Below are positions 19,188-30,568 of a stretch of DNA of 64,000 nucleotides, one piece after another. Made by a program: the position numbers and the translations under genes. A model generated the notes under the pieces. That model worked only from the letters and a program-made list of their open reading frames with translations. It did not search any database and had not been told where the DNA came from. Within the stretch, counting starts at the first letter, position 1. Each line of letters begins with the position of its first letter. The stretch is from the NCBI GenBank assembly GCA_963749075.1, contig CAVVLJ010000021.1, positions 352,001-416,000 on the forward strand, written 5' to 3'. This stretch comes from an uncultured Pseudomonadota bacterium. GTDB taxonomy: Bacteria > Pseudomonadota > Alphaproteobacteria > JACZXZ01.

Positions 19188-19727
19188 ATGCGCGGCTATT
19201 TCGGCATCGGCGTCGAGGGCATCAGCAAGCCCATGAATCTGGGCAGCCTTTGGCGCACGGCCCACGCCTTCGGTGCGGCCTTCGTGTTCACCATCGGCGC
19301 GCAGTACGAGCGGGCGGCGGGCGAGCTCGCGGACACCTCCAAGACCTCGGACCAGGTGCCGCTCCACGAATTCGCCGGCCTCGGGCAGTTCCGCCTGCCG
19401 CGCGGCTGCCTCCTCGTCGGCATCGAGATACTCGACGGCGCCGTGGAGCTGCCGAGCTTCCCCCATCCGCGCCAGGCGGCCTACGTGCTCGGGCCGGAGC
19501 GCGGCGCGCTCTCGCCGGACCTCCTCGCGCGCTGCGCCCACACCGTCAAAATTCCGACCAAATTCTCCGTGAATCTGGCGCTCGCCGGCGCCATCGTCAT
19601 GTACGACCGGCTCTTGAGCCTCGGCCGCTTCGCCGACCGTCCGCTCGCCGCCGGGCAGCAGGCGGCAGCGCTGCCGGAGCCGCACTTCGGGCCGCCCATC
19701 CTGCGGCGCCGGGCGGTCGAGGCCTAG
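19188..19727 (+). CDS. SpoU/TrmH family RNA methyltransferase
   Basis: MRGYFGIGVEGISKPMNLGSL, YVLGPERG, SVNLALAGAIVMYDR. Confidence 0.9.
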   Translation: MRGYFGIGVEGISKPMNLGSLWRTAHAFGAAFVFTIGAQYERAAGELADTSKTSDQVPLHEFAGLGQFRLPRGCLLVGIEILDGAVELPSFPHPRQAAYVLGPERGALSPDLLARCAHTVKIPTKFSVNLALAGAIVMYDRLLSLGRFADRPLAAGQQAAALPEPHFGPPILRRRAVEA

Positions 19728-19777
19728 GGAAGCTTGCGCGCGCAGTTTTGTCACCATGGCATGATCGGAAGGCGCCC

Positions 19778-20350
19778 ATGAAGAGATTATCCGCATTCGC
19801 CCTCGCCCCCGTCTTCGCCGTTGTCTTCGCCTTGGGCGCCTCGACGCTCGCCGCCCAGACGCAGCTCAAATCGGCGGAGAAACCGCAAGACAAGCAGCCG
19901 GGGCAGAAGGCCACGGTCATCGGCACCTACGGCGAGTGGCAGGCGATCACCTACAAGGAGGGCAGCGCCAACACCTGTTACGTCGCGAGCTATCCCAAGA
20001 AGATGGAGGGCCATCAGAGCAAGCCCGGCGAGGCCAATATCCTGGTCACCCATTGGCCGTCCCAGAAGACCTTCGGCGTGGTGAGCGTCACCGGCGGCTT
20101 CGATTACAAGAAGGACAGCACCGTCGAGCTCGCGATCGGCGACGAGAAGTTCTCGCTCTTCACGCAAGGCTCGCGCGGCTGGGCCAAGGAGGGCGAGGAT
20201 CCCAAGATCGTCAAGGCCTTCAAGTCCGGCAAGGACGCCGTCGCCTCGGGCGTCGCCGCGAGCGGCACCAAGACCAGGGACACCTTCTCGCTCGACGGCT
20301 TCACCAAGGCCTATGAGGAGGCGAGCAAGGCCTGCGGCGTCAAACCATGA
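19778..20350 (+). CDS. Invasion-associated locus B (IalB) family periplasmic protein
   Basis: Signal peptide; GTYGEW, TCYVAS, DTFSLDGFTKAYEEASKAC; usual position upstream of rlmN. Confidence 0.85.
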   Translation: MKRLSAFALAPVFAVVFALGASTLAAQTQLKSAEKPQDKQPGQKATVIGTYGEWQAITYKEGSANTCYVASYPKKMEGHQSKPGEANILVTHWPSQKTFGVVSVTGGFDYKKDSTVELAIGDEKFSLFTQGSRGWAKEGEDPKIVKAFKSGKDAVASGVAASGTKTRDTFSLDGFTKAYEEASKACGVKP

Positions 20351-20428
20351 GTACACCGAGTCGGTCCAGCGGCGTGCCGGTAAGCATGGCAATTGACTGG
20401 CGCAAACAGCATTCGGAGACGAGCTCGA

Positions 20429-20987
20429 TTATTTGCTCGACAGTCGGGTGATCTGGACGCGCCTGTTGATGCCGGCGGTCGGATTGGCCGTGTCGTAGAG
20501 CTTCAATTTCCCGAAGCCGATCGCGACGAGCTTCTGCGGATCGAGACCGGCGTGGGCGAGGAGGTAATCGCGCACCGTGCCGGCCCTTGCTTCCGAAAGA
20601 CGCTGGTTGTACTCGACGGAGCCGACCGCATCGGTGTGGCCGGCGATCTCGAAGCGAGCGCCGCGCAGGGACGAATCGCTCAGCGCCTTGCCGAGGACGT
20701 TCGAGCGAGATGATCCCGTCATTGGTGAGCCGCGCGGAATTGAACTCGAAATTGACCATGAGGCTCACCGTGGCCGGCTGCTGAGCCGGCTCGTCGCCCT
20801 CGACGGCGACTCCCCGGTTCGGCACGAAGGCGCGTGTGGGAGTGGGTGGATTGAGGCAGCCCACGATCTCGGACGCGGAGAGGGAGCCGGAGCACGCCGG
20901 GGTGGAGTCCGCAGCACTTGCGGGCAGGAGCCGCGCCGCCGTTGCGATGAAGACCGCTATCAGGAGGAGAATGCGCAGGTCAGGCAT
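20429..20987 (-). CDS. OmpA-like peptidoglycan-binding protein, frameshift at ~20700
   Basis: Signal peptide; VNFEFNSARLT then (after removing one base) LDVLGKAL, FEIAGHTDAVGSVEYNQRLSEARA, NRRVQI. Confidence 0.85.
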
Positions 20988-20999
20988 GGCCGTCCCCGC

Positions 21000-22589
21000 T
21001 CACGGCTTGGCCGCGTCGTGCGTCGTCAGAACGACCGTTGCGGCATCGACGACCCGGTCCCGCTGTTTCGGGTCGGGCTTGTACAAGAGCGCCTTGCGCA
21101 GCGCGGTGAGATATTCGCGCTCGGTCATGCTCCGGCCGAGCCCGTCGGCGAAGAGCGGGCTCGCCGATGCCACGGCCACGACCATCTCATGCCCGAATGG
21201 CGGGCCGATGCGGTACTTGCGCCGGTCGTCGTCGCCGCCGAGAACCACGGTGCTGTTCGGCGGCAAGGCGGCCGGGACCGTTCCAAGAGGCTGATAAAGC
21301 TGCACGGCGTCGCCGCCTGCCTGAAGGTAGGTGACATAGACATAGGCGGGATAGGTGGGCGTGCGGAGGCGCAGAATCAGGCGGCTGCCGGCCCCATAGT
21401 CGCCGCCATCGTTGCCGACCGCCGCAAGCTCCAGCCCGCGGCGACGCTTGATCACGTCGTCGAGCGTCATCAGGGCCTCGCACTGCGGCCACGGCCGCAG
21501 CAGCACATCGAATTTCACGTCAACCCCTTCCGGCAATTGCGCAACCGCCTCCTTCAACCGGCCGAAGTCCGTCTCCGACCCCACCCACCCGGAGAGCATG
21601 CCATGCTGCTGGTCCGTCGCGCGCAGCTTCACCCGCGCGCATTTCAGCCCGGCCGCGGCTTCGGAGAGGCTCGCCTGCCATGCCACCGGCTCGGGTTGCG
21701 GCGGCGGTGCCGGCTCCGGAGCGGGTGGTGGCGTCGGCGGAGCGATGTCCGTCACGGTGAACGCGTCGTGGACGCTTGCGAGATAGGCGCCATATGACAT
21801 CCAGCCGAACCCGCGGTCGCCCCAATACGGCCCCCATGAGTTGAAGAACTTGAAGGCCTGACGCGTATCGTCGTGGCCGACGATGACGATGGCGTGGCTG
21901 TCATTCGAGCCGGCGGCGTCGACGTTGTAGATGCCGCCCGGCCCGAGGTGCTTCATGACATAGTCGTTCAGCCTCATGCCGATGACGACCGGATCGCCGG
22001 CCGCGAGGCGCCCTTTCACGTCGTCCAGATTTCCGCGGTCGACGACGGCAAAGCCGAAGATCGTATGCTCGCGCGCGTGCTCCCTCACCGCCGGATCGGG
22101 AAGTGCTGAGCAGAAGCGCGGGTCGTAGGGGAACTCGGCAAGGCTCGCGATGCCGTCGCTTTGCAGCAACACGAGGGCGTCGGAGATGCGCGAGCCGCTG
22201 TTGCATTGGCCGGGCGTGTGGACGATCTGATTGTAGACGAAAGCCGGGCTGAAGAGATTATTGTCGTCGGCAAGCGACGTCCCGCGGCGCAGATGATCGT
22301 AGTAGGTCCTGAGCGCGTAGCCGACCGACCAAGCGACGCAGGAGCCTTGCCTGCCCTGGTCGCGCGGATCGGGGAAGCCGCCCGAGAGGTCCGTTTGCAG
22401 CGGCAGGAACGCCCGGTAGGGCGGCAGGTGCGGCAGCTTGGCGAGCACCGCCGGGTCCTCGGGGATGAGGCCTTGCGTGTAGGCGTGTTGGGGCATAAGT
22501 GCCAGAGCCGCGGCCACGTTGGCGGCGAAGACGATGTTAGAGGCGATTTTCCTTAACTGCGTCGTGTTTCGATCAATCGCATTGTCCAT
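21000..22589 (-). CDS. Papain-like C1 cysteine peptidase with C-terminal DUF4384-like domain
   Basis: QGRQGSCVAWS, SHAIVIVG, FFNSWGPYWGDRGFGW; Pro linker; LRPWPQCEAL, YVYVTYLQAGG...PPFGHEMVVAVAS; start uncertain. Confidence 0.85.
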   Translation of the reverse strand: MDNAIDRNTTQLRKIASNIVFAANVAAALALMPQHAYTQGLIPEDPAVLAKLPHLPPYRAFLPLQTDLSGGFPDPRDQGRQGSCVAWSVGYALRTYYDHLRRGTSLADDNNLFSPAFVYNQIVHTPGQCNSGSRISDALVLLQSDGIASLAEFPYDPRFCSALPDPAVREHAREHTIFGFAVVDRGNLDDVKGRLAAGDPVVIGMRLNDYVMKHLGPGGIYNVDAAGSNDSHAIVIVGHDDTRQAFKFFNSWGPYWGDRGFGWMSYGAYLASVHDAFTVTDIAPPTPPPAPEPAPPPQPEPVAWQASLSEAAAGLKCARVKLRATDQQHGMLSGWVGSETDFGRLKEAVAQLPEGVDVKFDVLLRPWPQCEALMTLDDVIKRRRGLELAAVGNDGGDYGAGSRLILRLRTPTYPAYVYVTYLQAGGDAVQLYQPLGTVPAALPPNSTVVLGGDDDRRKYRIGPPFGHEMVVAVASASPLFADGLGRSMTEREYLTALRKALLYKPDPKQRDRVVDAATVVLTTHDAAKP

Positions 22590-22728
22590 GGAATCTGTCC
22601 GGCCAACCGTGATGTCTTTGCGCCACGTTCCGCCCCGATCGGATGCCGGGAACGCGGACCACTGCATGACCGGTTTCGTCGCAGAAATAGCCGGCACTCC
22701 AATTACCCATTTAGCGCTATCGTCAAGC

Positions 22729-24471
22729 TCATTCGTCGGGGAGGCGTCTCAAAGCGTCCTTGGCCGCTTCATTGCCCTGCGCCGCTGCTAGCTTGTACCA
22801 GTAACGTGCTTGGGCATAGTCCGTCGCGACGCCCTCACCCATGTCGTAAAGATGTCCGACTTGGTACTGCGCCCTGTCATGCCCCTGACCGGCGGCCTTG
22901 CGGTACCAACGCATCGCTTCGGCATAGTCCATCGCCACGCCCCAACCGGTGTAGTAAAGACCTCCGACATTGTACTGGGCCCAGGCATGCCCCTGATCGG
23001 CGGCCTTGCGATACCAACGCATCGCTTCGGCAAAGTCCATCGACACGCCCCAACCCATGCTGTAAAGAATTCCGATGTTGTACTGCGCCTCGGCATTCCC
23101 CTGATCGGCGGCCCTGCGGTACCAACGCATCGCTTCAGCATAGTCCTTCGACACACCCCGACCCATTCCGTAAAGAACTCCGATGTTGTACTGCGCCCCG
23201 GCATCCCCCCGATCAGCCGCCTTGCGGTACCAACGCATCGCTTCGGCATAGTCCTTCGACACACCCCAACCGTTCGCGTAAATTACTCCTATGTGGTTCT
23301 GCGCCAACGCATCCCCCTGATCGGCGGCCTTCCGGAACTGAGCAACGGCGTTACGGAACCAGCGCTCGGCTTCGGCATGGTCCTGAGGTACGCCCGAACC
23401 TTTCTCGTATAGGATGCCAATTTCAAGTTGCGCCTCGGCATCCGCCTCATCGGCAGCCTTGCGTAACCAACGCATCGCTTCGGCAGGGTCTCTCGGCACC
23501 CCTTTTCCCATGGCGTAAAGTCTTCCGATGAAAATCGGTGCCTTGGTATTTTCCTGGTCGGCGGCTTTGAGATACCAACGCATAGCTTCGCCGTAATCTT
23601 TCCTATCTTCGGCTTCCCTTCCTCTGTGAAAGGCCTCTTCCGCCGAAATCGCCGGCTCCGGGACGGATGTAACGACCGCTACCTGCGGGGGCTGGCGCTC
23701 TCCAGCGAAATAGAACTCCCCATCGATGGGCGAAATCGCCACCCAGGGCTGCTGGGACCCGTTGGTGTTCCGATCGACGGTCAAGCCGACCTCGTTGAAC
23801 ATGTGGAGGATGTCGAGACCGGGCTTGCGCATCGCCTCGGCGAGCGCCTTGGTGTAGGGGCTGTTGCCGACGAGGCCGCCGTCGCTCGCCACATTGCCCG
23901 GCTGCGTCGCGTAGGAGATCAGCGTTCCCCTGGGCGCCTTCATCTGGGCGAGGCCGCCGCCGGCGTCCCTCAGGCCGCGCCCGCCGAATGGGTTGTTGCG
24001 GCAGGCGTCGAGGATCATCACGTTGAGCCGCGCACCCGAGGCCTCCATCTGGCGCAGCACGACTCCGGCATCCACGAGCTCGAAGTCCGCGTCGGCCGCC
24101 TGCGTCGGATTGGCGTCGACGGGGGCCAGATAATTGACGCCCTGCAACTGGAGCCCGTGGCCGGCGTAGTAGAAGAGTCCCACGCCGCCCCCGGTGAGCT
24201 GCTCGCGGAACGAGCGGATCGCTTTGTCGAAGGCGGCCTTGTCGAGGTTGAGGAGCGCCCGGTCGCCGACCAAGGTAAAGCCTAAGCTCCTCAGCGTGTC
24301 CGCTATGAGGTTCGCATCGTTGGGCGTATTCGCGAGCCGGGCGGCGTGCTGGTAGTCGGCGTTTCCAATGACCAGTGCTACGCGCCGCTCGGGCGTCTCC
24401 GCCATTGTCTCGGACGAGGCCGCAATGGCCCACATCGCCGCGACAATCAAGTGCCGGAAGAGCGGTCTCAT
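22729..24471 (-). CDS. Caspase-family (peptidase C14) protein with C-terminal Sel1-like repeats, signal peptide
   Basis: RVALVIGNADY, FYYAGHG, ILDACRNNP, SYATQPG; 7 full plus 1 partial Sel1 repeats. Confidence 0.93.
   Translation of the reverse strand: MRPLFRHLIVAAMWAIAASSETMAETPERRVALVIGNADYQHAARLANTPNDANLIADTLRSLGFTLVGDRALLNLDKAAFDKAIRSFREQLTGGGVGLFYYAGHGLQLQGVNYLAPVDANPTQAADADFELVDAGVVLRQMEASGARLNVMILDACRNNPFGGRGLRDAGGGLAQMKAPRGTLISYATQPGNVASDGGLVGNSPYTKALAEAMRKPGLDILHMFNEVGLTVDRNTNGSQQPWVAISPIDGEFYFAGERQPPQVAVVTSVPEPAISAEEAFHRGREAEDRKDYGEAMRWYLKAADQENTKAPIFIGRLYAMGKGVPRDPAEAMRWLRKAADEADAEAQLEIGILYEKGSGVPQDHAEAERWFRNAVAQFRKAADQGDALAQNHIGVIYANGWGVSKDYAEAMRWYRKAADRGDAGAQYNIGVLYGMGRGVSKDYAEAMRWYRRAADQGNAEAQYNIGILYSMGWGVSMDFAEAMRWYRKAADQGHAWAQYNVGGLYYTGWGVAMDYAEAMRWYRKAAGQGHDRAQYQVGHLYDMGEGVATDYAQARYWYKLAAAQGNEAAKDALRRLPDE
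22770..23320 (-). repeat. 108-bp tandem repeats encoding Sel1 units
   Basis: Recurring gtaccaacgcatcgcttcggcatagtcc-type units at 108-bp spacing. Confidence 0.85.
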
Positions 24472-24685
24472 GATACCCGCCGCCTTATGCTTCTTCCTAT
24501 GGCACTCTCCTATCCGAACGAAAAAGCAGCGTCAGTGACGCAGCTCACAATCTTGGGCTGAGAATATCAAAACGGGCGCACGTGCTCAATGAGCAACAGC
24601 ACGGGCTCGAGGCACGGTCCGGCGCCTCCTGAACGATCTCCGCACTCCCGTGATCCGGTCCTGTGACCCGCGAGGCGGCGCATGC

Positions 24686-25762
24686 TCATGACGGATCAAA
24701 GAAGTCGCCGCAGTTGTTTTGCCGGCAAAGATAGACCCCAACGTAGCTGCCATAGGGAAACGGAAGCTCGATTCCGATTGGGGTCTTTGTCGTTCTTATC
24801 CCCAGAACTCTTATCGCCAACACGACCTGCTGTCCCGGCATGGTGAACCGTGTGCTCGGCAGATCGATCACCAGGAGGTCGCCGAACGCCCCCTCAGTCT
24901 CCGACAGCATCTGGGAGAAGTCGGCCCTGACGCCGACCACCTTGTCCTTGAATGGGAACGGGTTCGTTTTGAGCATTTGCGCGCTGGCCCAGGCGACGAC
25001 GCCGTTTGCGGCAATGAAGGCGGCGCGGGCAGTCTTGCGCGCTTCCGCCAGCTCCGCCGCCTCCTTGGCCTCGGCCGCGAGTTTCGCCTCACGCGCAAGC
25101 CGCGCCGCCTCCTCCCGACGCTTCTGCTCCTCTTGTTGCCGCACTCGGCTTGCTTCGGCTTCCGCTTGCCGCCGGCGCTCCTCCGCCGCGGCATAAGCGC
25201 GATCTTCAATATTCGGATTGTTCGGCGACCAATCCCACGTGGCGGTGGCCGCTGGGTCGCTTTTCGCGGCCTTGAACCAGGCCTTTGCGACATACTGCTG
25301 GTCGTAGGACTTGCCGTAGCGCTCGGAGTAGGCCGCTATCTCCTGGTTCCTGTAGAGCAGGACATACACCACAAGCTGGTTCGTGTTGAAATCGCTCGGC
25401 GGCCCCGCCATGGAATACATCCTTGCATCCGGGCAGATCTCCTGAAATTTCGCTGCCGCCTTCCGGGCGACCTCTCTTGCATAGCTCAAATTCTCGAAAC
25501 GCTCGCGAAGGTCATACGGCACGCCCACTACAATCTCGTATGTGGTCGGGAAGCCCGCAAAACCGCGGTAGGCGCACGGGTTGACCCACCCGTGAAGGGG
25601 GTCGTGCATGGCAGGGACGACATAAAAAATTCTAACACCGCCCTCTTCGGCCGTCACTTTCTTGTAGACGGGCGGCGTCTTTATGTCGTTTGCGGCGGCG
25701 CCTCGCGCACAGACAAGTCCGGCTATGCCGATGGCAAGCAACAGCATCAGTCGTCCAAGCAT
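24686..25762 (-). CDS. Hypothetical exported protein with central coiled coil and possible C-terminal OB-fold
   Basis: Signal peptide MLGRLMLLLAIGIAGLVCARGAAA; EERRRQAEAE coiled coil; NPFPFKDKVVGV beta domain; Cys pairs. Confidence 0.65.
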   Translation of the reverse strand: MLGRLMLLLAIGIAGLVCARGAAANDIKTPPVYKKVTAEEGGVRIFYVVPAMHDPLHGWVNPCAYRGFAGFPTTYEIVVGVPYDLRERFENLSYAREVARKAAAKFQEICPDARMYSMAGPPSDFNTNQLVVYVLLYRNQEIAAYSERYGKSYDQQYVAKAWFKAAKSDPAATATWDWSPNNPNIEDRAYAAAEERRRQAEAEASRVRQQEEQKRREEAARLAREAKLAAEAKEAAELAEARKTARAAFIAANGVVAWASAQMLKTNPFPFKDKVVGVRADFSQMLSETEGAFGDLLVIDLPSTRFTMPGQQVVLAIRVLGIRTTKTPIGIELPFPYGSYVGVYLCRQNNCGDFFDPS

Positions 25763-25902
25763 CGTCGCTGCGGCGTCTTGCACGGCGGATGATACTCGAT
25801 GCTGGCTCGCTCCCGAGGGGACCCGGCATCGCCACCCGATTGAGCGAGAAGCAAGCGCGGGCGCGGCCCCATGGCGCGATCGGGGGATTCCGCAGAGCAT
25901 AT

Positions 25903-27402
25903 CTAGGGCGTCAGTCCGCAGGCCTTGCTCGCCCTTGTGTAGGCCTCCCTGAACCCCTCGAGCGAGTAAACATCCCTTGTCCTAGCGCCTTCGGCACTCG
26001 TGCCGGTGACGACAGCCTGCCTGCCAATCTTGAGGGCTTCGACGATCTCGGCGTCGCCTCCAGCCATGGCCCATCCGCGGCTGCCGTTGGTGAAAAGCGA
26101 GAACTTCTCACCGTCGACTACGAGCTCGACGGTGCTGTTCTTCTGATAGTCATAGCCGCTGGTGACGCTGACGATGCCAAAGGTCTTCTGCCTCCGCCAG
26201 TGCGTGACGAGGATATTGGCCTCGCCGGGCTTGCTCTGATGGCCCTCCTCCTTCTTGGGATAGCTCGCGACGTAGCAGGTATCGGTCGCGCCTTCCTTGT
26301 AGGTGATCGCATTCCAATTTCCGAACGTGCCCATCATATTTGCGCGCGGTCCTGAAATCGATAGGTCCGCCACAGGTGGGATTGCTGACACTGCCTTCTG
26401 CGGCGGTGCCGCAACAGCAACCTTCTCTGGCGTCGGCCTCGCCGGCGGCAGCGCCTGAATCCGGTTGCGCGCCAGCGAGGCGAAGGCGCCCGTCGGATAT
26501 TGTTTCAGGTATGCCTCGAAATCCGCCGGGTCCTTGCTGCCCTCGATAAACTCCCAGAATACCGTCTCCTTGTCTGCCGATGGCACGGGCGCGGGCGGGG
26601 TCGGAATCGTGCTGCCGGGCGACAGGCCGGCGAAATAGAACTCTCCGTCAATGGGCGAATGCGATACCCACGGCTGTTGCGATCCGTCCGTCTCGCGGTC
26701 GACGGCCACGCCGACCGAGTTGAACATGTGCAAGATGTCGAGGCCGGGCTTGCGCATCGCGTCCGCAAGCGCCTTGGTATATGGGCTGTTGCCGCCCAGG
26801 CCGCCGTCGCTCGCGACGTTGCCCGGCTGCGTCGCGTACGATATCAGCGTCCCTCGCGGCGCCTTCATTTGCGCGAGGCCGCCGCCGGCGTCGCGAAAAC
26901 CCCGCCCGCCGAAGGGGTTGTTGCGGCAGGCGTCGAGGATCATCACGTTGAGCCGCGCTCCGGACGCGTTCATCTGCCGCAGCACCACCCCCGCGTCCAC
27001 GAGCTCGAAGTCCGCGTCGGCCGCCTGGGTCGGGTTGGCGTTCACTGGTGCTAGATAATTGACTCCCTCCAACTGAAGCCCGTGGCCCGCATAGTAGAAG
27101 AGACCCACAGCGCCGCCGGTGAGTTGCTCGCGGAAGTCGCGAATCGCTTTGTCGAAGGCGGCCTTGTCAAGATCGAGGAGCGCCTGGCCGCCGACAAGTG
27201 TGAAGCCTAGGCTCTTCAATGTATCGGCGATGAGCTTCGCATCGTTAGAGGTATTCGCGAGCCGGGCGGTGTGCTGGTAGTCGGCGTTGCCGATGACGAG
27301 CGCGATGCGTTGCTCGCGGGTATCGGCCGTCGCCTCGAGTGATGCCGTGCCGGTGACGGCCAATATCGCCGCAACGGCCATACGCCGGATAAACGGTCTC
27401 AT
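25903..27402 (-). CDS. Caspase-family protein fused to an IalB domain, signal peptide
   Basis: FYYAGHG and LDACRNNP dyad; FWEFIEGSKDPADFEAYLKQYPTG helical linker; C-terminal domain closely matching the 19778-20350 product. Confidence 0.9.
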   Translation of the reverse strand: MRPFIRRMAVAAILAVTGTASLEATADTREQRIALVIGNADYQHTARLANTSNDAKLIADTLKSLGFTLVGGQALLDLDKAAFDKAIRDFREQLTGGAVGLFYYAGHGLQLEGVNYLAPVNANPTQAADADFELVDAGVVLRQMNASGARLNVMILDACRNNPFGGRGFRDAGGGLAQMKAPRGTLISYATQPGNVASDGGLGGNSPYTKALADAMRKPGLDILHMFNSVGVAVDRETDGSQQPWVSHSPIDGEFYFAGLSPGSTIPTPPAPVPSADKETVFWEFIEGSKDPADFEAYLKQYPTGAFASLARNRIQALPPARPTPEKVAVAAPPQKAVSAIPPVADLSISGPRANMMGTFGNWNAITYKEGATDTCYVASYPKKEEGHQSKPGEANILVTHWRRQKTFGIVSVTSGYDYQKNSTVELVVDGEKFSLFTNGSRGWAMAGGDAEIVEALKIGRQAVVTGTSAEGARTRDVYSLEGFREAYTRASKACGLTP

Positions 27403-27814
27403 GACCCCATCTCGAATCTGGTGTATCAGGCGTTAATCACCCCCGCAGTGACACGAACCGCGACGTAGAGACTATCATGACCCTGGGGCACTCTCAATCA
27501 CAAGTAGCGGCGCGCTAGAATCGTGCCCTGCGCCCCTTGGACGACCGAGCCTGGCGCCAAGGCGTGTGAAACGGATCAGGCTAGCGACGGATCGAGGAAG
27601 CTGTCACGACTTCCCCGTTGACAGGAACAACGGCCGTCGCCATGCGGAAATGGGATCCGAGTCAGGTGACCATGGGGATTCGAGCATTCTGCGAGTTTGC
27701 TTTCCCGCCGGTTGTCACCTACATCCAGGGCAGCAATGACACCTGCGCTGAGGAGGCGGGCAAGGCCTGCGGCGCGAAAGACTAGCAGCCGCCGCCCTTG
27801 CCGCATGAAGAGCC

Positions 27815-28943
27815 ATGAGCGTCGCCGTCGAGCGCGCGTCCGAGACGCAAAAGAACCTGATCGGGCTCAGCCGCGCGGAGCTCGAGGAGGAGCTCGCCGT
27901 CCTCGGCCTCGAGCGCTTCCGCGCCCGCCAGCTCTGGCACTGGATCTATCACCGCGGCGCGCCCGACTTCGCCGCGATGTCCTCGCTCTCGCGCCGGCTG
28001 CGCGAGACGCTCGAGCGGCACTTCACGCTCGCCCGTGCCGTGGCCGTGCGCGACCAGCAGTCCTCGGACGGCACGCGCAAGTGGCTCTTGCGGCTCGCCG
28101 ACGGCAATCTCGTCGAGACCGTGCACATTCCGGAGGAGGACCGCGGCGCCTTGTGCGTCTCCTCGCAAGTCGGCTGCACGCTCACCTGCAAGTTCTGCCA
28201 TACCGGCACGCAGAAGCTCGTGCGCAACCTCGAGGCCGGCGAGATCGTCGGCCAGCTCATGCTGGCGCGCGATGCCATCGGCGAGTGGCCGTCGCCGCGT
28301 GACGGCCGCATGATCTCCAACATCGTGCTCATGGGGATGGGCGAGCCGCTCTACAATTACGAGAACGTCGCGCAAGGCATTGCGCATCGTGATGGATGCG
28401 GACGGCATCGCCATCTCGCGCCGGCGCATCACGCTCTCGACCGCGGGCGTGGTGCCGCAGATCAGGCGCGCGGGTGCCGAGCTCCGCGTCAATCTCGCGG
28501 TCTCCCTCCACGCGGTGACCGACGGCTTGCGCGACGTGATCGTGCCGCTCAACCGCAAATACCCGATCGCGGAGCTCATCGCGGCCTGCCGCGACTATGC
28601 GGCACTCAACCCCAACCGGCGCATCACCTTCGAATACGTCATGCTCAAGGGGGTGAACGACGGTGCGGCCGACGCGCGCGAGCTCCTGCGCCTCATCCGC
28701 GGCATCCCGGCCAAGGTGAACCTCATCCCCTTCAACCCCTGGCCGGGCGCGCCCTTCGAATGCTCGGACGAGGGCGCCATCCGCGCTTTCGCCGACATCG
28801 TGATGAACGCCGGCTATCACGCGCCCGTGCGCACGCCGCGCGGCCGCGACATCCTCGCCGCCTGCGGCCAGCTCAAGTCCGAGAGCCTGCGCGAGCGCGC
28901 CGCCGCGCGCGCGGCCAAGCGCGCGGCGGCGGCGGCATCATGA
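27815..28943 (+). CDS. rlmN: 23S rRNA m2A2503/tRNA methyltransferase RlmN, frameshift at ~28372
   Basis: [25 protein letters not shown]; second frame [30 protein letters not shown]. Confidence 0.93.
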
Positions 28944-28945
28944 GA

Positions 28946-29581
28946 TCATGAGGCGGCGAGCGCGAGCCTCTCCTCGGCGAAGCGCCAATTGACCAGCTTG
29001 TCGAGCCAGGCCGCGACGTAGTCGGCGCGCCTGTTCTGATAGTCGAGGTAATAAGCGTGCTCCCACACGTCGATGGTGAGGAGCGGCGTGGCACCGTGAA
29101 CGAGGGGCGTGTCGGCGTTGGCGGTCGCCATGACCTTGAGCGCGCCCTTCGCGTCGGCTGCGAGCCAGGCCCAGCCGCTGCCGAACTGGCCGAGCGCCGC
29201 CTGCGCCATGGCCTCGCGGCACGCCTTGGCGCCGCCGAAATCGCGCTCGAGCGCCGCCTTGAGCTTGCCCGCAGGCTCGCCGCCGCCGTGCGGGGCCATG
29301 CACTGCCAATAGAACGCGTGGTTCCACGCCTGGGCGGCGTTGTTGAAGATCTTGCCCGCCTTGGCATCCTTGGCCGCGCGCCGGATCACCCCTTCGAGCG
29401 CCGCGCCCTCGTAGCCCGTGCCCTTGACGAGCTCGTTGAGCGTCTTGACGTAGCCCGCGTGGTGCTTGCCGTGGTGGAAGGAGAGCGTGCGCGCGGTGAT
29501 CACCGGCTGAAGCGCGTTCTCGTCGTAAGGCAGCTTCGGCAGCTCGAAGGCGGCTTGGCCCTTGGTCAAGGTATCTGGCAT
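28946..29581 (-). CDS. sodB: Fe/Mn superoxide dismutase
   Basis: [48 protein letters not shown]. Confidence 0.93.
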
Positions 29582-29831: not shown

Positions 29832-30263
29832 TCAGCAGGCGATTGCGCGGACGTGGCCTGCGCGCGCATAAGCAAGAATGTGGCGGTCGCGCGTGACGAT
29901 GGGGACGCCGAGCGCGCGTGCCGTGGCGACGAGGAGGCGGTCGCCCGGATCGGCATGGAAGTTTCCCGGAAGTTCGGACGATTCGATGGCGATCTCCGGG
30001 GTGAAGGGGGCGAGCCTGATCCCGGCTTGCGCGAGGAGACGAGCGAACCAGGTCTTCGCGTCGGGGAGGAATTGCACCGGGTGCTTGCGTCGGGCGGCGC
30101 CCAGCAGGCCGATCTCCCAGGCCGACACCACGGACACGAGAACGCCCTCCCCGCGCGCCGCGGCGAGGATCTCATCGTGCCCGCGCGCCTGCATCTCGTC
30201 GCCGTTGGCGACAAAGATCGCGGCACAGGTGTCGAGGAGGAGCGGCCCCGCCGCCGCGCTCAT
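29832..30263 (-). CDS. vapC: VapC/PIN-domain toxin
   Basis: [30 protein letters not shown]. Confidence 0.9.
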
Positions 30264-30532
30264 CCGTGGATGCGCCCCTTGCGCGCGGAGAGCGGCTCGT
30301 CGAGCACGGGGGCGGTAAGATCGACAGCCGGCGGCACGCGCACGCTGCCGCGCATGCAGCCGAAAAGCGCTTCCGCCTCATGGCCGCGGTCGAACGGAGT
30401 CAGCACCGCCATGGGCCGTCCGCGCTTGGTGATGATGAGTCGGTTGAGCTTGCCCTGCTGAAGGCGCTCCAGGAGTGCGAGGCAGGTTGCCTTGAAGGCG
30501 CTCGCGCTGATGGTCTCTCCGGCGTCGCGCAT
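30260..30532 (-). CDS. Phd/YefM antitoxin
   Basis: [27 protein letters not shown]; 4-bp overlap with vapC. Confidence 0.88.
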
Positions 30533-30550
30533 GGTCATCTCCATATGTCT

Positions 30551-30568
30551 GGTCATAAATATATGACC
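30551..30568. promoter_or_regulatory. Operator palindrome of the phd-vapC operon
   Basis: GGTCATA-AATA-TATGACC perfect 7-bp inverted repeat just upstream of the antitoxin. Confidence 0.65.

Follow-up and report, generated by a model that had tools for sequence, protein, structure and literature searches.

A predicted exported caspase-like protease carrying a diverged duplicate of its lineage's own IalB domain

Where does the variable module of a bacterial caspase-like protein come from, and what might it do for the protein that carries it? The question is raised by a gene on the minus strand of a 64,000-nucleotide stretch, called the window below, from the genome of an uncultured alphaproteobacterium (assembly GCA_963749075.1, contig CAVVLJ010000021.1, positions 352,001 to 416,000). 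The gene encodes a caspase (Peptidase_C14, here C14) domain joined to an IalB domain, and a standalone ialB gene is found nearby on the opposite strand. Bacteria have many caspase homologues of modular build, and a substrate or role is known for very few of them. Here the variable module can be traced straight to its source, the neighbouring ialB, of which it is a duplicate at 66% identity. We consider it reasonably probable that an exported, modular caspase-like protease took a copy of the ialB of its own lineage as a targeting module.

The source genome (G000) has a size of 5.49 Mb in 23 contigs, with an estimated contamination of 5.15%. The fusion gene, its parts and the standalone gene are located in the window as follows.

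25903-27402, minus strand: caspase-IalB fusion gene (P0002), 499 amino acid residues (aa); an intact open reading frame (ORF) with Pfam C14 and IalB matches and an AlphaFold2 (AF2) model of mean pLDDT (predicted local distance difference test) 81.
26635-27309, minus strand: caspase (C14) domain, residues 32-256, with His107 and Cys159; Pfam match, motifs, pLDDT mostly >85.
26452-26571, minus strand: three-helix module, residues 278-317; AF2 helices 278-286, 292-301 and 308-317.
26347-26436, minus strand: Pro/Ala-rich flexible tether, residues 323-352; pLDDT 26-42.
25903-26352, minus strand: IalB-derived C-terminal domain, residues 351-499 and the stop codon; BLASTP, AF2 and fold match.
19778-20350, plus strand: standalone ialB, 190 aa, with a signal-peptide-like N-terminus; Pfam IalB 46.7 bits over residues 54-181.

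The C-terminal domain of the fusion protein and the standalone IalB are closely similar. Residues 42-190 of IalB align without gaps to residues 351-499 of the fusion protein, with 99 of 149 residues identical (66%), 120 of 149 positives and an E-value of 6e-74 in BLASTP. The original prediction, made from the letters of the window, was of a gapless match of about 145 residues at roughly two-thirds identity, on opposite strands about 6 kb apart, and this description is accurate. It had placed the match at 25903-26350, which is the IalB-like part (residues 351-499 with the stop codon). At the DNA level the two copies form inverted-repeat arms at 19919-20251 and 26002-26334 (333 nt, 78% complementary, 5750 nt apart) with further arms at 20264-20337 and 25916-25989, and blastn merges them into a single match of 424 nt at 76% (E 2e-84). 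The peptide TCYVASYPKKxEGHQSKPGEANILVTHW, which the prediction had singled out together with an identical DNA stretch, is present in both proteins, and the DNA stretch is an identical run of 39 nt. The similarity lies far beyond chance. The copied stretch starts directly past the signal peptide and low-complexity linker of IalB, and it comprises exactly the mature globular domain.

The N-terminus of the fusion protein, MRPFIRRMAVAAILAVTGTASLEATA, resembles a Sec signal peptide as judged by eye. The caspase domain scores 126.5 bits with the Pfam profile Peptidase_C14 (PF00656, cut-off 21.4 bits) over residues 32-256, covering profile positions 2-233 of 233, and the C-terminal domain scores 45 bits with IalB (PF06776, cut-off 22.1 bits) over residues 363-490, covering profile positions 1-129 of 131. 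Two motifs are found in the caspase domain, YYAGHG with His107 and LDACRNNP with Cys159; motifs of the YYAGHG and DACRN types are also found in the neighbouring caspase paralogue and in other C14-IalB fusions. We take His107 (AGHG) and Cys159 (DACRN) to be the caspase dyad. Caspase homologues have a catalytic His-Cys dyad, as stated in PMC6426788. It lies in the p20 part. The fusion protein has a complete caspase domain keeping this dyad, and it is predicted to be an active protease; members of the family cleave after basic residues.

In the AF2 model of the fusion protein, built on a 44-row alignment, the caspase domain and the C-terminal domain are well folded and a disordered tether lies between them. 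Residues 354-499 form a well-folded, all-beta structure with two helices, and the C-terminal domain modelled alone reaches a pLDDT of 93.2 (model m2ef096d6d366, window 25906-26355). The best fold match of this domain is the IalB of Bartonella henselae (3dtd_A), with a Z-score of 13.1, a root-mean-square deviation of 3.0 and 129 aligned residues (VIA). Foldseek agrees, with TM-scores of 0.61-0.68 to the 3dtd chains. The sequence identity to 3dtd is only 15-17%, and a sequence search of the PDB with IalB returned chance-level antibody matches only (best E 0.017). In a 35-row alignment the fused copy has lost none of the 5 invariant columns (W, C, P, W, L) and none of 11 near-invariant ones; both Cys residues are among those kept. 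The second fold match is 8z5n_A, a chain of the flagellar LPHT ring (Z 10.4, 126 aligned residues), and all others have Z below 6. The same 8z5n chain ranks next to MotY (2zf8) in the Foldseek list, a fold-level link between IalB and a periplasmic protein of the flagellar ring.

The three-helix module, WEFIEGSKDPADFEAYLKQYPTGAFASLARNRIQAL, also occurs in at least 8 other places in the same genome, on contigs C5, C14, C16, C17 and C20, when residues 275-352 are used as the query. A similar stretch is found in P0022 and P0040, in other fusions and in many database caspases, and it has no Pfam match. It may represent an undescribed linker domain of this protease family.

The origin of the fused domain was assessed by comparison with the relatives of the source organism. 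Its order and family comprise 11 genomes including its own, so that 10 relatives were compared, five of which are congeners. The source genome has just two IalB-family matches, one in the standalone ialB and one in the fusion, next to 13 caspase-domain genes. In the 10 other genomes of the family the fused domain is matched once each. In maximum-likelihood (ML) trees of 43 and 47 IalB rows, where support is given as two values, the fused domain is placed inside the ialB clade of the genus with 99/96 in both. It is sister to the ialB of its own genome with 90/88 (43 rows) and 91/88 (47 rows). The terminal branch of the fused copy is about five times longer than that of the own ialB, 0.39 against 0.084 in the 43-row tree. 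With the 14-residue identical tract and the last 3 residues masked, the fused copy still falls in the genus set (SH-aLRT, the Shimodaira-Hasegawa-like approximate likelihood ratio test, 97). Because the placement survives this masking, a small patch of gene conversion fails to explain it.

The fused domain is 66% identical to the own ialB and 61-63% identical to its matches in the five congeners. A search of 5.8 billion proteins under the heading 'shorter' gave 8 hits. P0249, at 99%, is a piece of the fusion gene itself; the own IalB follows at 66%, then come five proteins at 61-64%, and a 96-aa partial protein has 75% over 60 residues, where the own IalB also has 75%. Apart from that piece, nothing in this search was closer than the own IalB. 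A search limited to proteins of near length, with the IalB part alone, scored none of 385 candidates, an effect of the word index, since the full-length search did return fusions. A search for related loci with the fused domain gave nothing in genome contigs and 3 weak or partial matches only in metagenome contigs. In both the fused copy and the present ialB the frame closes with Pro-stop (CCATGA), while the congeners and the ialB remnant at the far end of the island described below keep a Gly/Asp-stop form; this hints that the fused copy has some history in common with the 3' end that ialB now carries. Taken together, the trees and alignments argue firmly for a duplicate that arose within the genus or at its base. 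A duplication after the split from the sampled congeners would be the best estimate only. A grouping with distant IalB proteins, which the original prediction had named as evidence against a local source, is not observed, and the fused domain nests in the clade of its own genus.

The fused domain is under purifying selection. The comparison of the fused copy with the own ialB (Nei-Gojobori method) gives dN (nonsynonymous divergence) of 0.249, dS (synonymous divergence) of 0.705 and a dN/dS ratio of 0.35, which lies within the range of 0.22-0.47 for ialB orthologue pairs of the genus. This is the check that had been proposed with the prediction, and the ratio indicates purifying selection on the fused copy. 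Since this purifying signature is joined by the retention of the conserved columns, the C-terminal part is a working domain rather than a relic. At sites that are uniform in the five congeners, 64 changes are specific to the fused copy and 10 to the own ialB (chi-square 39.4, with the sister topology assumed). At third positions the counts are 28 and 7, and 19 of the 28 fused-specific changes are from GC to AT. The GC fraction at third codon positions (GC3) is 0.79 in the fused domain and 0.93 in the same 450-nt stretch of ialB. Three-taxon arithmetic would assign a dS of about 0.57 and a dN of about 0.18 to the fused branch, and about 0.13 and 0.065 to the own branch. By these estimates the fused copy appears to evolve four to five times faster than ialB and to have drifted to the composition of the island in which it resides.

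It is important to compare this fusion with other proteins of the same architecture. A full-length protein search scored 8000 proteins, 7323 of them with an E-value up to 0.001, and the best 120 were used. Twelve of these 120 cover 93-99% of the fusion protein at 40-46% identity, with lengths of 470-496 aa. They are arranged like the present fusion, running from a signal peptide through caspase, helical module and tether to an IalB-type domain. One is a 'caspase family protein' of Bradyrhizobium sp. JYMT SZCCT0180 (P0065, L089), and metagenomic proteins are among the others. The architecture is thus already present in databases, and P0007 carries both Pfam labels; no discussion of a caspase-IalB fusion was found in the literature searched for both families. 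In the 47-row tree the IalB domains of the 12 other fusions cluster with standalone IalB proteins of Hyphomicrobiales (100/99). The standalone IalB of Bradyrhizobium is sister to 10 of the 12 (97/94), and P0007 and P0009 branch outside. A single clade of all 13 fusions is rejected (log-likelihood difference 53, approximately unbiased (AU) test p=0.0013). A single clade of the 12 others is borderline (AU p=0.047), and the tree needs 3 label changes. The caspase domains of the Hyphomicrobiales fusions are 61-66% identical to the one described here, no closer than caspases without IalB. The fused and standalone copies of Bradyrhizobium are 50% identical and lie 87 kb apart, compared with 66% and 5.6 kb in our window. 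A further protein, P0155, combines C14 with two IalB domains of another, high-scoring subtype (176 bits).

From these trees we claim firmly that IalB domains were joined to the caspase chassis at least twice overall; three or more such events are probable. In every traceable case the fused IalB came from the ialB of its own lineage. Fusions of C14 and IalB are older elsewhere, yet uncommon, and the present one has a separate and younger origin. The original prediction had held that old and widespread fusions of this kind would speak against a local capture. They do exist elsewhere and are older, so that this objection holds by half, but their origin is separate from that of the present fusion (AU p=0.0013). 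What is known already is the modular prokaryotic caspase family and the C14-IalB architecture in databases. New are the lineage-local origin of the module, traceable to the gene next door, the scar that the insertion left in ialB, and the finding that the combination arose repeatedly.

IalB of the type found in the window occurs in 243 of 401 genomes of the class, G000 included (242 of 400 without G050, which is flagged as unpublished), nearly always in a single copy; the class-wide sample consists of 400 other genomes, evenly drawn. No fused domain of the Hyphomicrobiales type was found in these 400 genomes, where the best identity was 39%. Long frames around IalB matches in G069, G074 and G175 were considered as fusion candidates and proved to be plain standalone IalB proteins. 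In Hyphomicrobiales genomes (G408-G411, L093-L107) the IalB family numbers 3-5 genes and falls into two subtypes or more. That of this window scores 30-47 bits with PF06776, while another scores 87-140 bits and is unmatched by the hidden Markov model (HMM) of the first subtype.

The caspase half has a different, equally local relative. The caspase domain of the fusion is 88.9% identical to that of the adjacent caspase-Sel1 protein, and the next best among the 120 database proteins is at 70%. The two domains pair on a tree (SH-aLRT 98), with a dS of 0.71 and a dN/dS of 0.10, and the two proteins diverge completely directly past the caspase domain. The partners detected in the 13 caspase genes of the genome are Sel1 in four (two of them with YfiO-like or TonB_C parts), FGE-sulfatase, WD40 and IalB in one each, and none in six. 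A survey (PMC3501461) reports, in its main text, 671 prokaryotic caspase homologues in 112 architectures, with Sel1 and FGE-sulfatase as frequent partners; both of these also occur in the present genome. The fusion protein resembles the homologues described there in its C14 domain with a His-Cys dyad, its N-terminal signal-peptide-like helix and its variable C-terminal partner. It differs in the partner itself, since IalB has 0 occurrences in that main text. Unlike in the surveyed homologues, the partner domain is here traceable to a neighbouring gene of the same lineage. The Sel1 array of the adjacent paralogue (22700-23584, minus strand) is a tandem one with a period of 108 nt (36 aa) and six registered copies that are 63-85% alike in DNA, which suggests a recent expansion of the repeat.

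The joint between the two halves is supported by Logan contigs of metagenome runs. Two soil-metagenome runs of one study contain the stretch, at 0.74 (X1) and 0.18 (X2) of the sampled words. One X1 contig covers 26224-26844, that is the IalB domain, the tether and the end of the caspase domain, over 621 nt without gaps and with one substitution. It bridges the joint, and the misassembly that the prediction had considered is not seen. A second X1 contig (25474-26035) spans the stop codon of the fusion and the next gene, and a third (27074-27890) spans the caspase start, the ialB remnant and the start of rlmN without gaps. X1 is possibly the source sample, so that this support is not fully independent, and its contigs were built separately. 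A false join by an assembler is unlikely because the inverted arms are just 76-78% alike. At 26221-26223 X1 has a minor variant that changes two bases of codon 394 (E394H) within the conserved stretch GEANILVTHW. Its depth is 2.2 of about 15-18, at a place where depth is inflated by the 39-nt tract common with ialB. The same His is found in P0249.

We can now describe what the preferred reading, a protease that took its own lineage's ialB as a targeting module, would imply. The chassis would consist of a signal peptide, a C14 domain of the orthocaspase type with its His-Cys dyad, the three-helix module and the Pro/Ala tether, and the C-terminal module would be a diverged duplicate of the mature part of the cell's own single-copy periplasmic IalB. 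The protein would be exported, and its IalB-derived domain would dock the protease at the envelope site or ligand recognised by IalB, where proteolysis would take place. The products of the 12 other caspase genes would presumably be targeted likewise by their own modules (Sel1, TonB_C, FGE-sulfatase, WD40). The gene belongs to an island that was inserted right at the 3' terminus of ialB and whose other products are envelope proteins, likewise predicted to be exported. The caspase-IalB combination may be regarded as useful rather than accidental because it was joined repeatedly in different lineages.

The known members of the IalB family allow a limited comparison. Bartonella IalB has been reported at the inner membrane. 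For Sinorhizobium meliloti, passages of PMC7327166 describe RgsG, which has an IalB domain, as an essential protein of the periplasm that localises to the growing pole. The fused domain shares the Pfam family and the fold with Bartonella IalB (3dtd) and RgsG, which are exported and alphaproteobacterial. Unlike the fusion, these proteins are standalone, and they have no known ligand whose recognition could be transferred. The proposal nevertheless links two poorly understood families and gives a testable idea, that the protease acts where IalB acts in the alphaproteobacterial envelope, so that caspase and IalB could each serve as a probe for the other. The case is also a clear example of accessory modular proteins gaining modules from nearby core genes.

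Several observations weigh against this proposal. Export, protease activity and binding by the IalB domain are all predicted, and the molecular function of IalB itself is unknown in passages of PMC7327166. The sisterhood of the fused copy with the own ialB is supported by just 90-91/88, below the starred level, and the AU test does not reject a topology in which the six standalone IalB proteins of the genus group to the exclusion of the fused copy (p=0.277). The dS between fused copy and own ialB (0.705) is about equal to that between fused copy and congeners (0.69-0.77) and is twice that between the own ialB and the five congeners (0.30-0.35). Under a clock the fused copy would predate the radiation of the genus, yet no carrier is found among the relatives. 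The original prediction of a capture from the local ialB fares well as to descent (nesting at 99/96, sister at 91/88), and a recent date for it calls for caution. The doubled dS can mean either an older origin or a faster, composition-driven rate, and the synonymous excess could represent rate acceleration together with a shift in composition. As for the assembly, the left junction of the island (about 20350-20430) has X1 depth but no bridging contig among those listed. One base at 20700, in an OmpA-like gene of the island, is absent from the Logan contigs of both X1 and X2; the window thus probably has a one-base insertion error there, and the gene is probably intact in the population. Another assembly has the fusion in pieces, namely P0126 (195 aa, 98%, with frameshifted ends) and P0249 (144 aa, with an internal Met start). 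X1 has no indel at the frameshift site of P0126, and we read the pieces as indel errors or a strain variant.

The rival readings depend in part on the island and its surroundings, whose features are the following.

20351-27748, no strand assigned: accessory island of about 7.4 kb with five genes, all on the minus strand; gene order, DNA search and composition.
20429-20987, minus strand: OmpA-like peptidoglycan-binding gene with a frameshift near 20700; Pfam OmpA 55.2 bits on ORF 20429-20722.
21000-22697, minus strand: papain-type (C1) peptidase with DUF4384, 565 aa; Pfam Peptidase_C1 43.7 bits, DUF4384 37.3 bits.
22729-24471, minus strand: caspase-Sel1 paralogue (P0003), 580 aa; Pfam C14 123.7 bits and 7 Sel1 repeats.
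24686-25900, minus strand: unknown protein, a 404-aa ORF with the likely start at an internal Met (25762), just downstream of the fusion gene.
20314-20350, plus strand: left copy of a direct repeat, formed by the last part of ialB with the stop codon; repeat of 31 nt at 90%.
27749-27785, plus strand: right copy of the direct repeat, a remnant of the ialB 3' end, AEEAGKACGAKD-stop; 30 nt upstream of the rlmN start.
27815-28951, plus strand: rlmN, frameshifted near 28380; the core gene right after ialB in relatives.

Gene order was inspected in three congeners (G002, G003 and G004) and one member of another genus (G007), that is 4 of the 10 relatives. The order is qor, an asparaginase-like gene, spoU, ialB, rlmN, (sodB) and argG, and ialB lies after spoU and directly before rlmN in all four. 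The island as a unit is found in none of the 10 other family genomes by DNA search, where the only matches are to paralogous caspase, Sel1 and ialB pieces. Its genes have a GC3 of 0.73-0.83, compared with 0.89-0.94 in seven flanking core reading frames, and its GC fraction is 0.59-0.66, compared with 0.68-0.75 in the flanks. The direct repeat (20314-20339 against 27749-27774) is identical at 25 of 26 positions (blastn E 8e-7). The remnant is 89-91% identical to the ialB ends of four congeners and sits where the ialB of relatives ends. Since this repeat of the ialB terminus brackets the island, the insertion point is located within the last ~36 nt of ialB. With its flanking direct repeats, its absence from relatives and its deviant composition, the island is of an integrative type. 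Some genomic islands integrate at the 3' ends of genes and are flanked by a direct repeat of that end. The present island is like these in its direct repeat of the target gene end, its deviant composition and its absence from relatives. Unlike typical ones, it has a protein gene as target instead of a tRNA gene, is small (7.4 kb), and no integrase was found. The original prediction that homology explains the insertion site is correct in part, in that a direct repeat of the ialB 3' end brackets the island; the inverted fused copy provides no simple crossover site. The inverted copy and the direct-repeat remnant could have formed by template switching or fold-back, or by integration followed by rearrangement, and we mention these as possibilities only.

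This scar leads to the best-surviving rival reading, which we find possible and on the unlikely side: that the whole island was imported from an unsampled relative of the genus or family which had captured its own ialB, with ialB-like sequence guiding the integration. It would account for the dS of the fused domain, which is alike to the own ialB and to congeners and twice the within-genus value, and for the low GC3 of an island not found in 10 relatives. The tree test that lets the copy sit outside the six standalone genes is consistent with it, as is the ialB-end repeat as an integration-type scar. Against it, the ML tree pairs the fused copy with the own ialB (91/88), and the two share the terminal Pro codon and stop context. 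The synonymous excess consists mostly of changes from GC to AT. Low GC3 (0.56-0.85) is found in 11 of the 13 caspase genes genome-wide, and because it is a trait of this whole gene family it is no proof of recent import. No integrase or transposase domain was found by Pfam in the five island ORFs, between which no non-coding stretch exceeds about 350 nt; the genome, metagenome and protein searches gave no donor-like sequence.

The second rival concerns function. It supposes that the fused domain pairs with free IalB or an IalB assembly, so that the protease is recruited to IalB or its partners, or cleaves them, at the zone of envelope growth. The domain is paralogous to the sole IalB of the cell, the essential periplasmic RgsG sits at the growing pole of S. 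meliloti (PMC7327166), and the resemblance of the fold to the 8z5n LPHT ring chain (Z 10.4) hints at a protein-binding fold. A common fold proves no function, however; there is no sign here that IalB associates with itself, and at 66% identity many surface positions have changed. We regard this pairing as rather doubtful. The original prediction had also named targeting of the IalB partner, for which the present analysis gave no support.

A wider and more speculative version, which we rate as quite improbable, is that caspase-like envelope proteases repeatedly recruit their own IalB as a site marker or bait, so that a self-derived sensor switches on proteolysis in the periplasm. IalB would here be a conserved periplasmic protein, mostly present in one copy and linked to the zone of envelope growth. 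The trigger would be pairing with IalB assemblies, or binding by a phage or toxin protein that targets IalB. If true, this would be a bacterial, extracytoplasmic counterpart of the integrated decoy. Plant NLR immune receptors carry integrated decoy domains. The fusion is like these in joining a duplicated host protein to one of effector type, and the resemblance is formal only: unlike plant NLRs, the protein is probably exported and has no NLR-like switch, and there is no evidence that IalB is a pathogen target.

The original prediction had itself likened the domain to an integrated decoy or guard. On this reading a host protein under attack by a phage or by the toxin of a competitor would have been copied and wired to a caspase-like executioner, which we consider very unlikely. 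The domain is indeed paralogous to a conserved host protein and fast-evolving, the population variant E394H alters two bases of one codon, and caspase-like proteases do occur in some defence systems. The PADLOC search of the fusion gave a generic 'caspase' hit, however (37.8 bits, 126 of 453 profile positions), and of the other island proteins searched none scored more than weakly. No system of the PADLOC defence set fits the island proteins, and NCBIfam adds nothing. The island holds no partner defence genes, its neighbouring proteins are of the envelope type, the signal-peptide-like N-terminus (judged by eye) makes the protein probably extracytoplasmic, and a dN/dS of 0.35 gives no overall positive selection.

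That the single ORF is a chimera or indel artefact, or its IalB part a dying pseudogene, is hardly credible: the assembly of 23 contigs with 5.15% estimated contamination, the probable indel errors in the window and the frameshifted pieces of the other assembly would allow it, while the gapless X1 contig across the joint and others over both gene ends, arms too diverged at 76-78% to mislead an assembler, 499 open codons, a dN/dS of 0.35 and conserved residues that are all kept speak against it.

The preferred reading of a locally derived targeting module is accompanied by several minor observations in and around the island. The neighbours of the fusion gene in the island all encode envelope-type proteins with signal-peptide-like starts, and for the OmpA-like gene such a start is found in the upstream ORF 20340-20987. 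Pfam, NCBIfam and PADLOC gave no match for the 404-aa unknown protein, its own genome holds no paralogue of it, and the protein atlas gave no usable hit. It contains a signal-peptide-like stretch after the internal Met and a charged, coiled-coil-like middle. Its C-terminal ~145 aa are matched at 33-39% in 2 of the 400 other class genomes, and the stretches of about 3 kb that hold these two partial matches contain no caspase. A scan for promoters and terminators over 19600-28000 gave counts not above those of shuffled sequences.

A second piece of ialB was considered at 27715-27745 (plus strand), where TYIQGSNDTC can be compared with TYKEGSANTC at residues 58-67 of IalB, and it was rejected (blastn E 0.22, and nothing with the family HMM). 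It lies in the same frame as the remnant and would fit an internally deleted second ialB copy, at a non-significant level. The rlmN gene consists of two overlapping ORFs in different frames (27815-28951 and 28380-28943) and is a single frame in the four relatives; the split may stem from an indel in the assembly or be a true frameshift of this core gene. A vapBC-like toxin-antitoxin pair is located at 29832-30556 (minus strand), between sodB and argG. It is unmatched at the loci of the four relatives, where argG follows rlmN or sodB, and sodB is absent at that place in G002 and G003. The stretch around sodB and argG looks like a hotspot for small accessory insertions.

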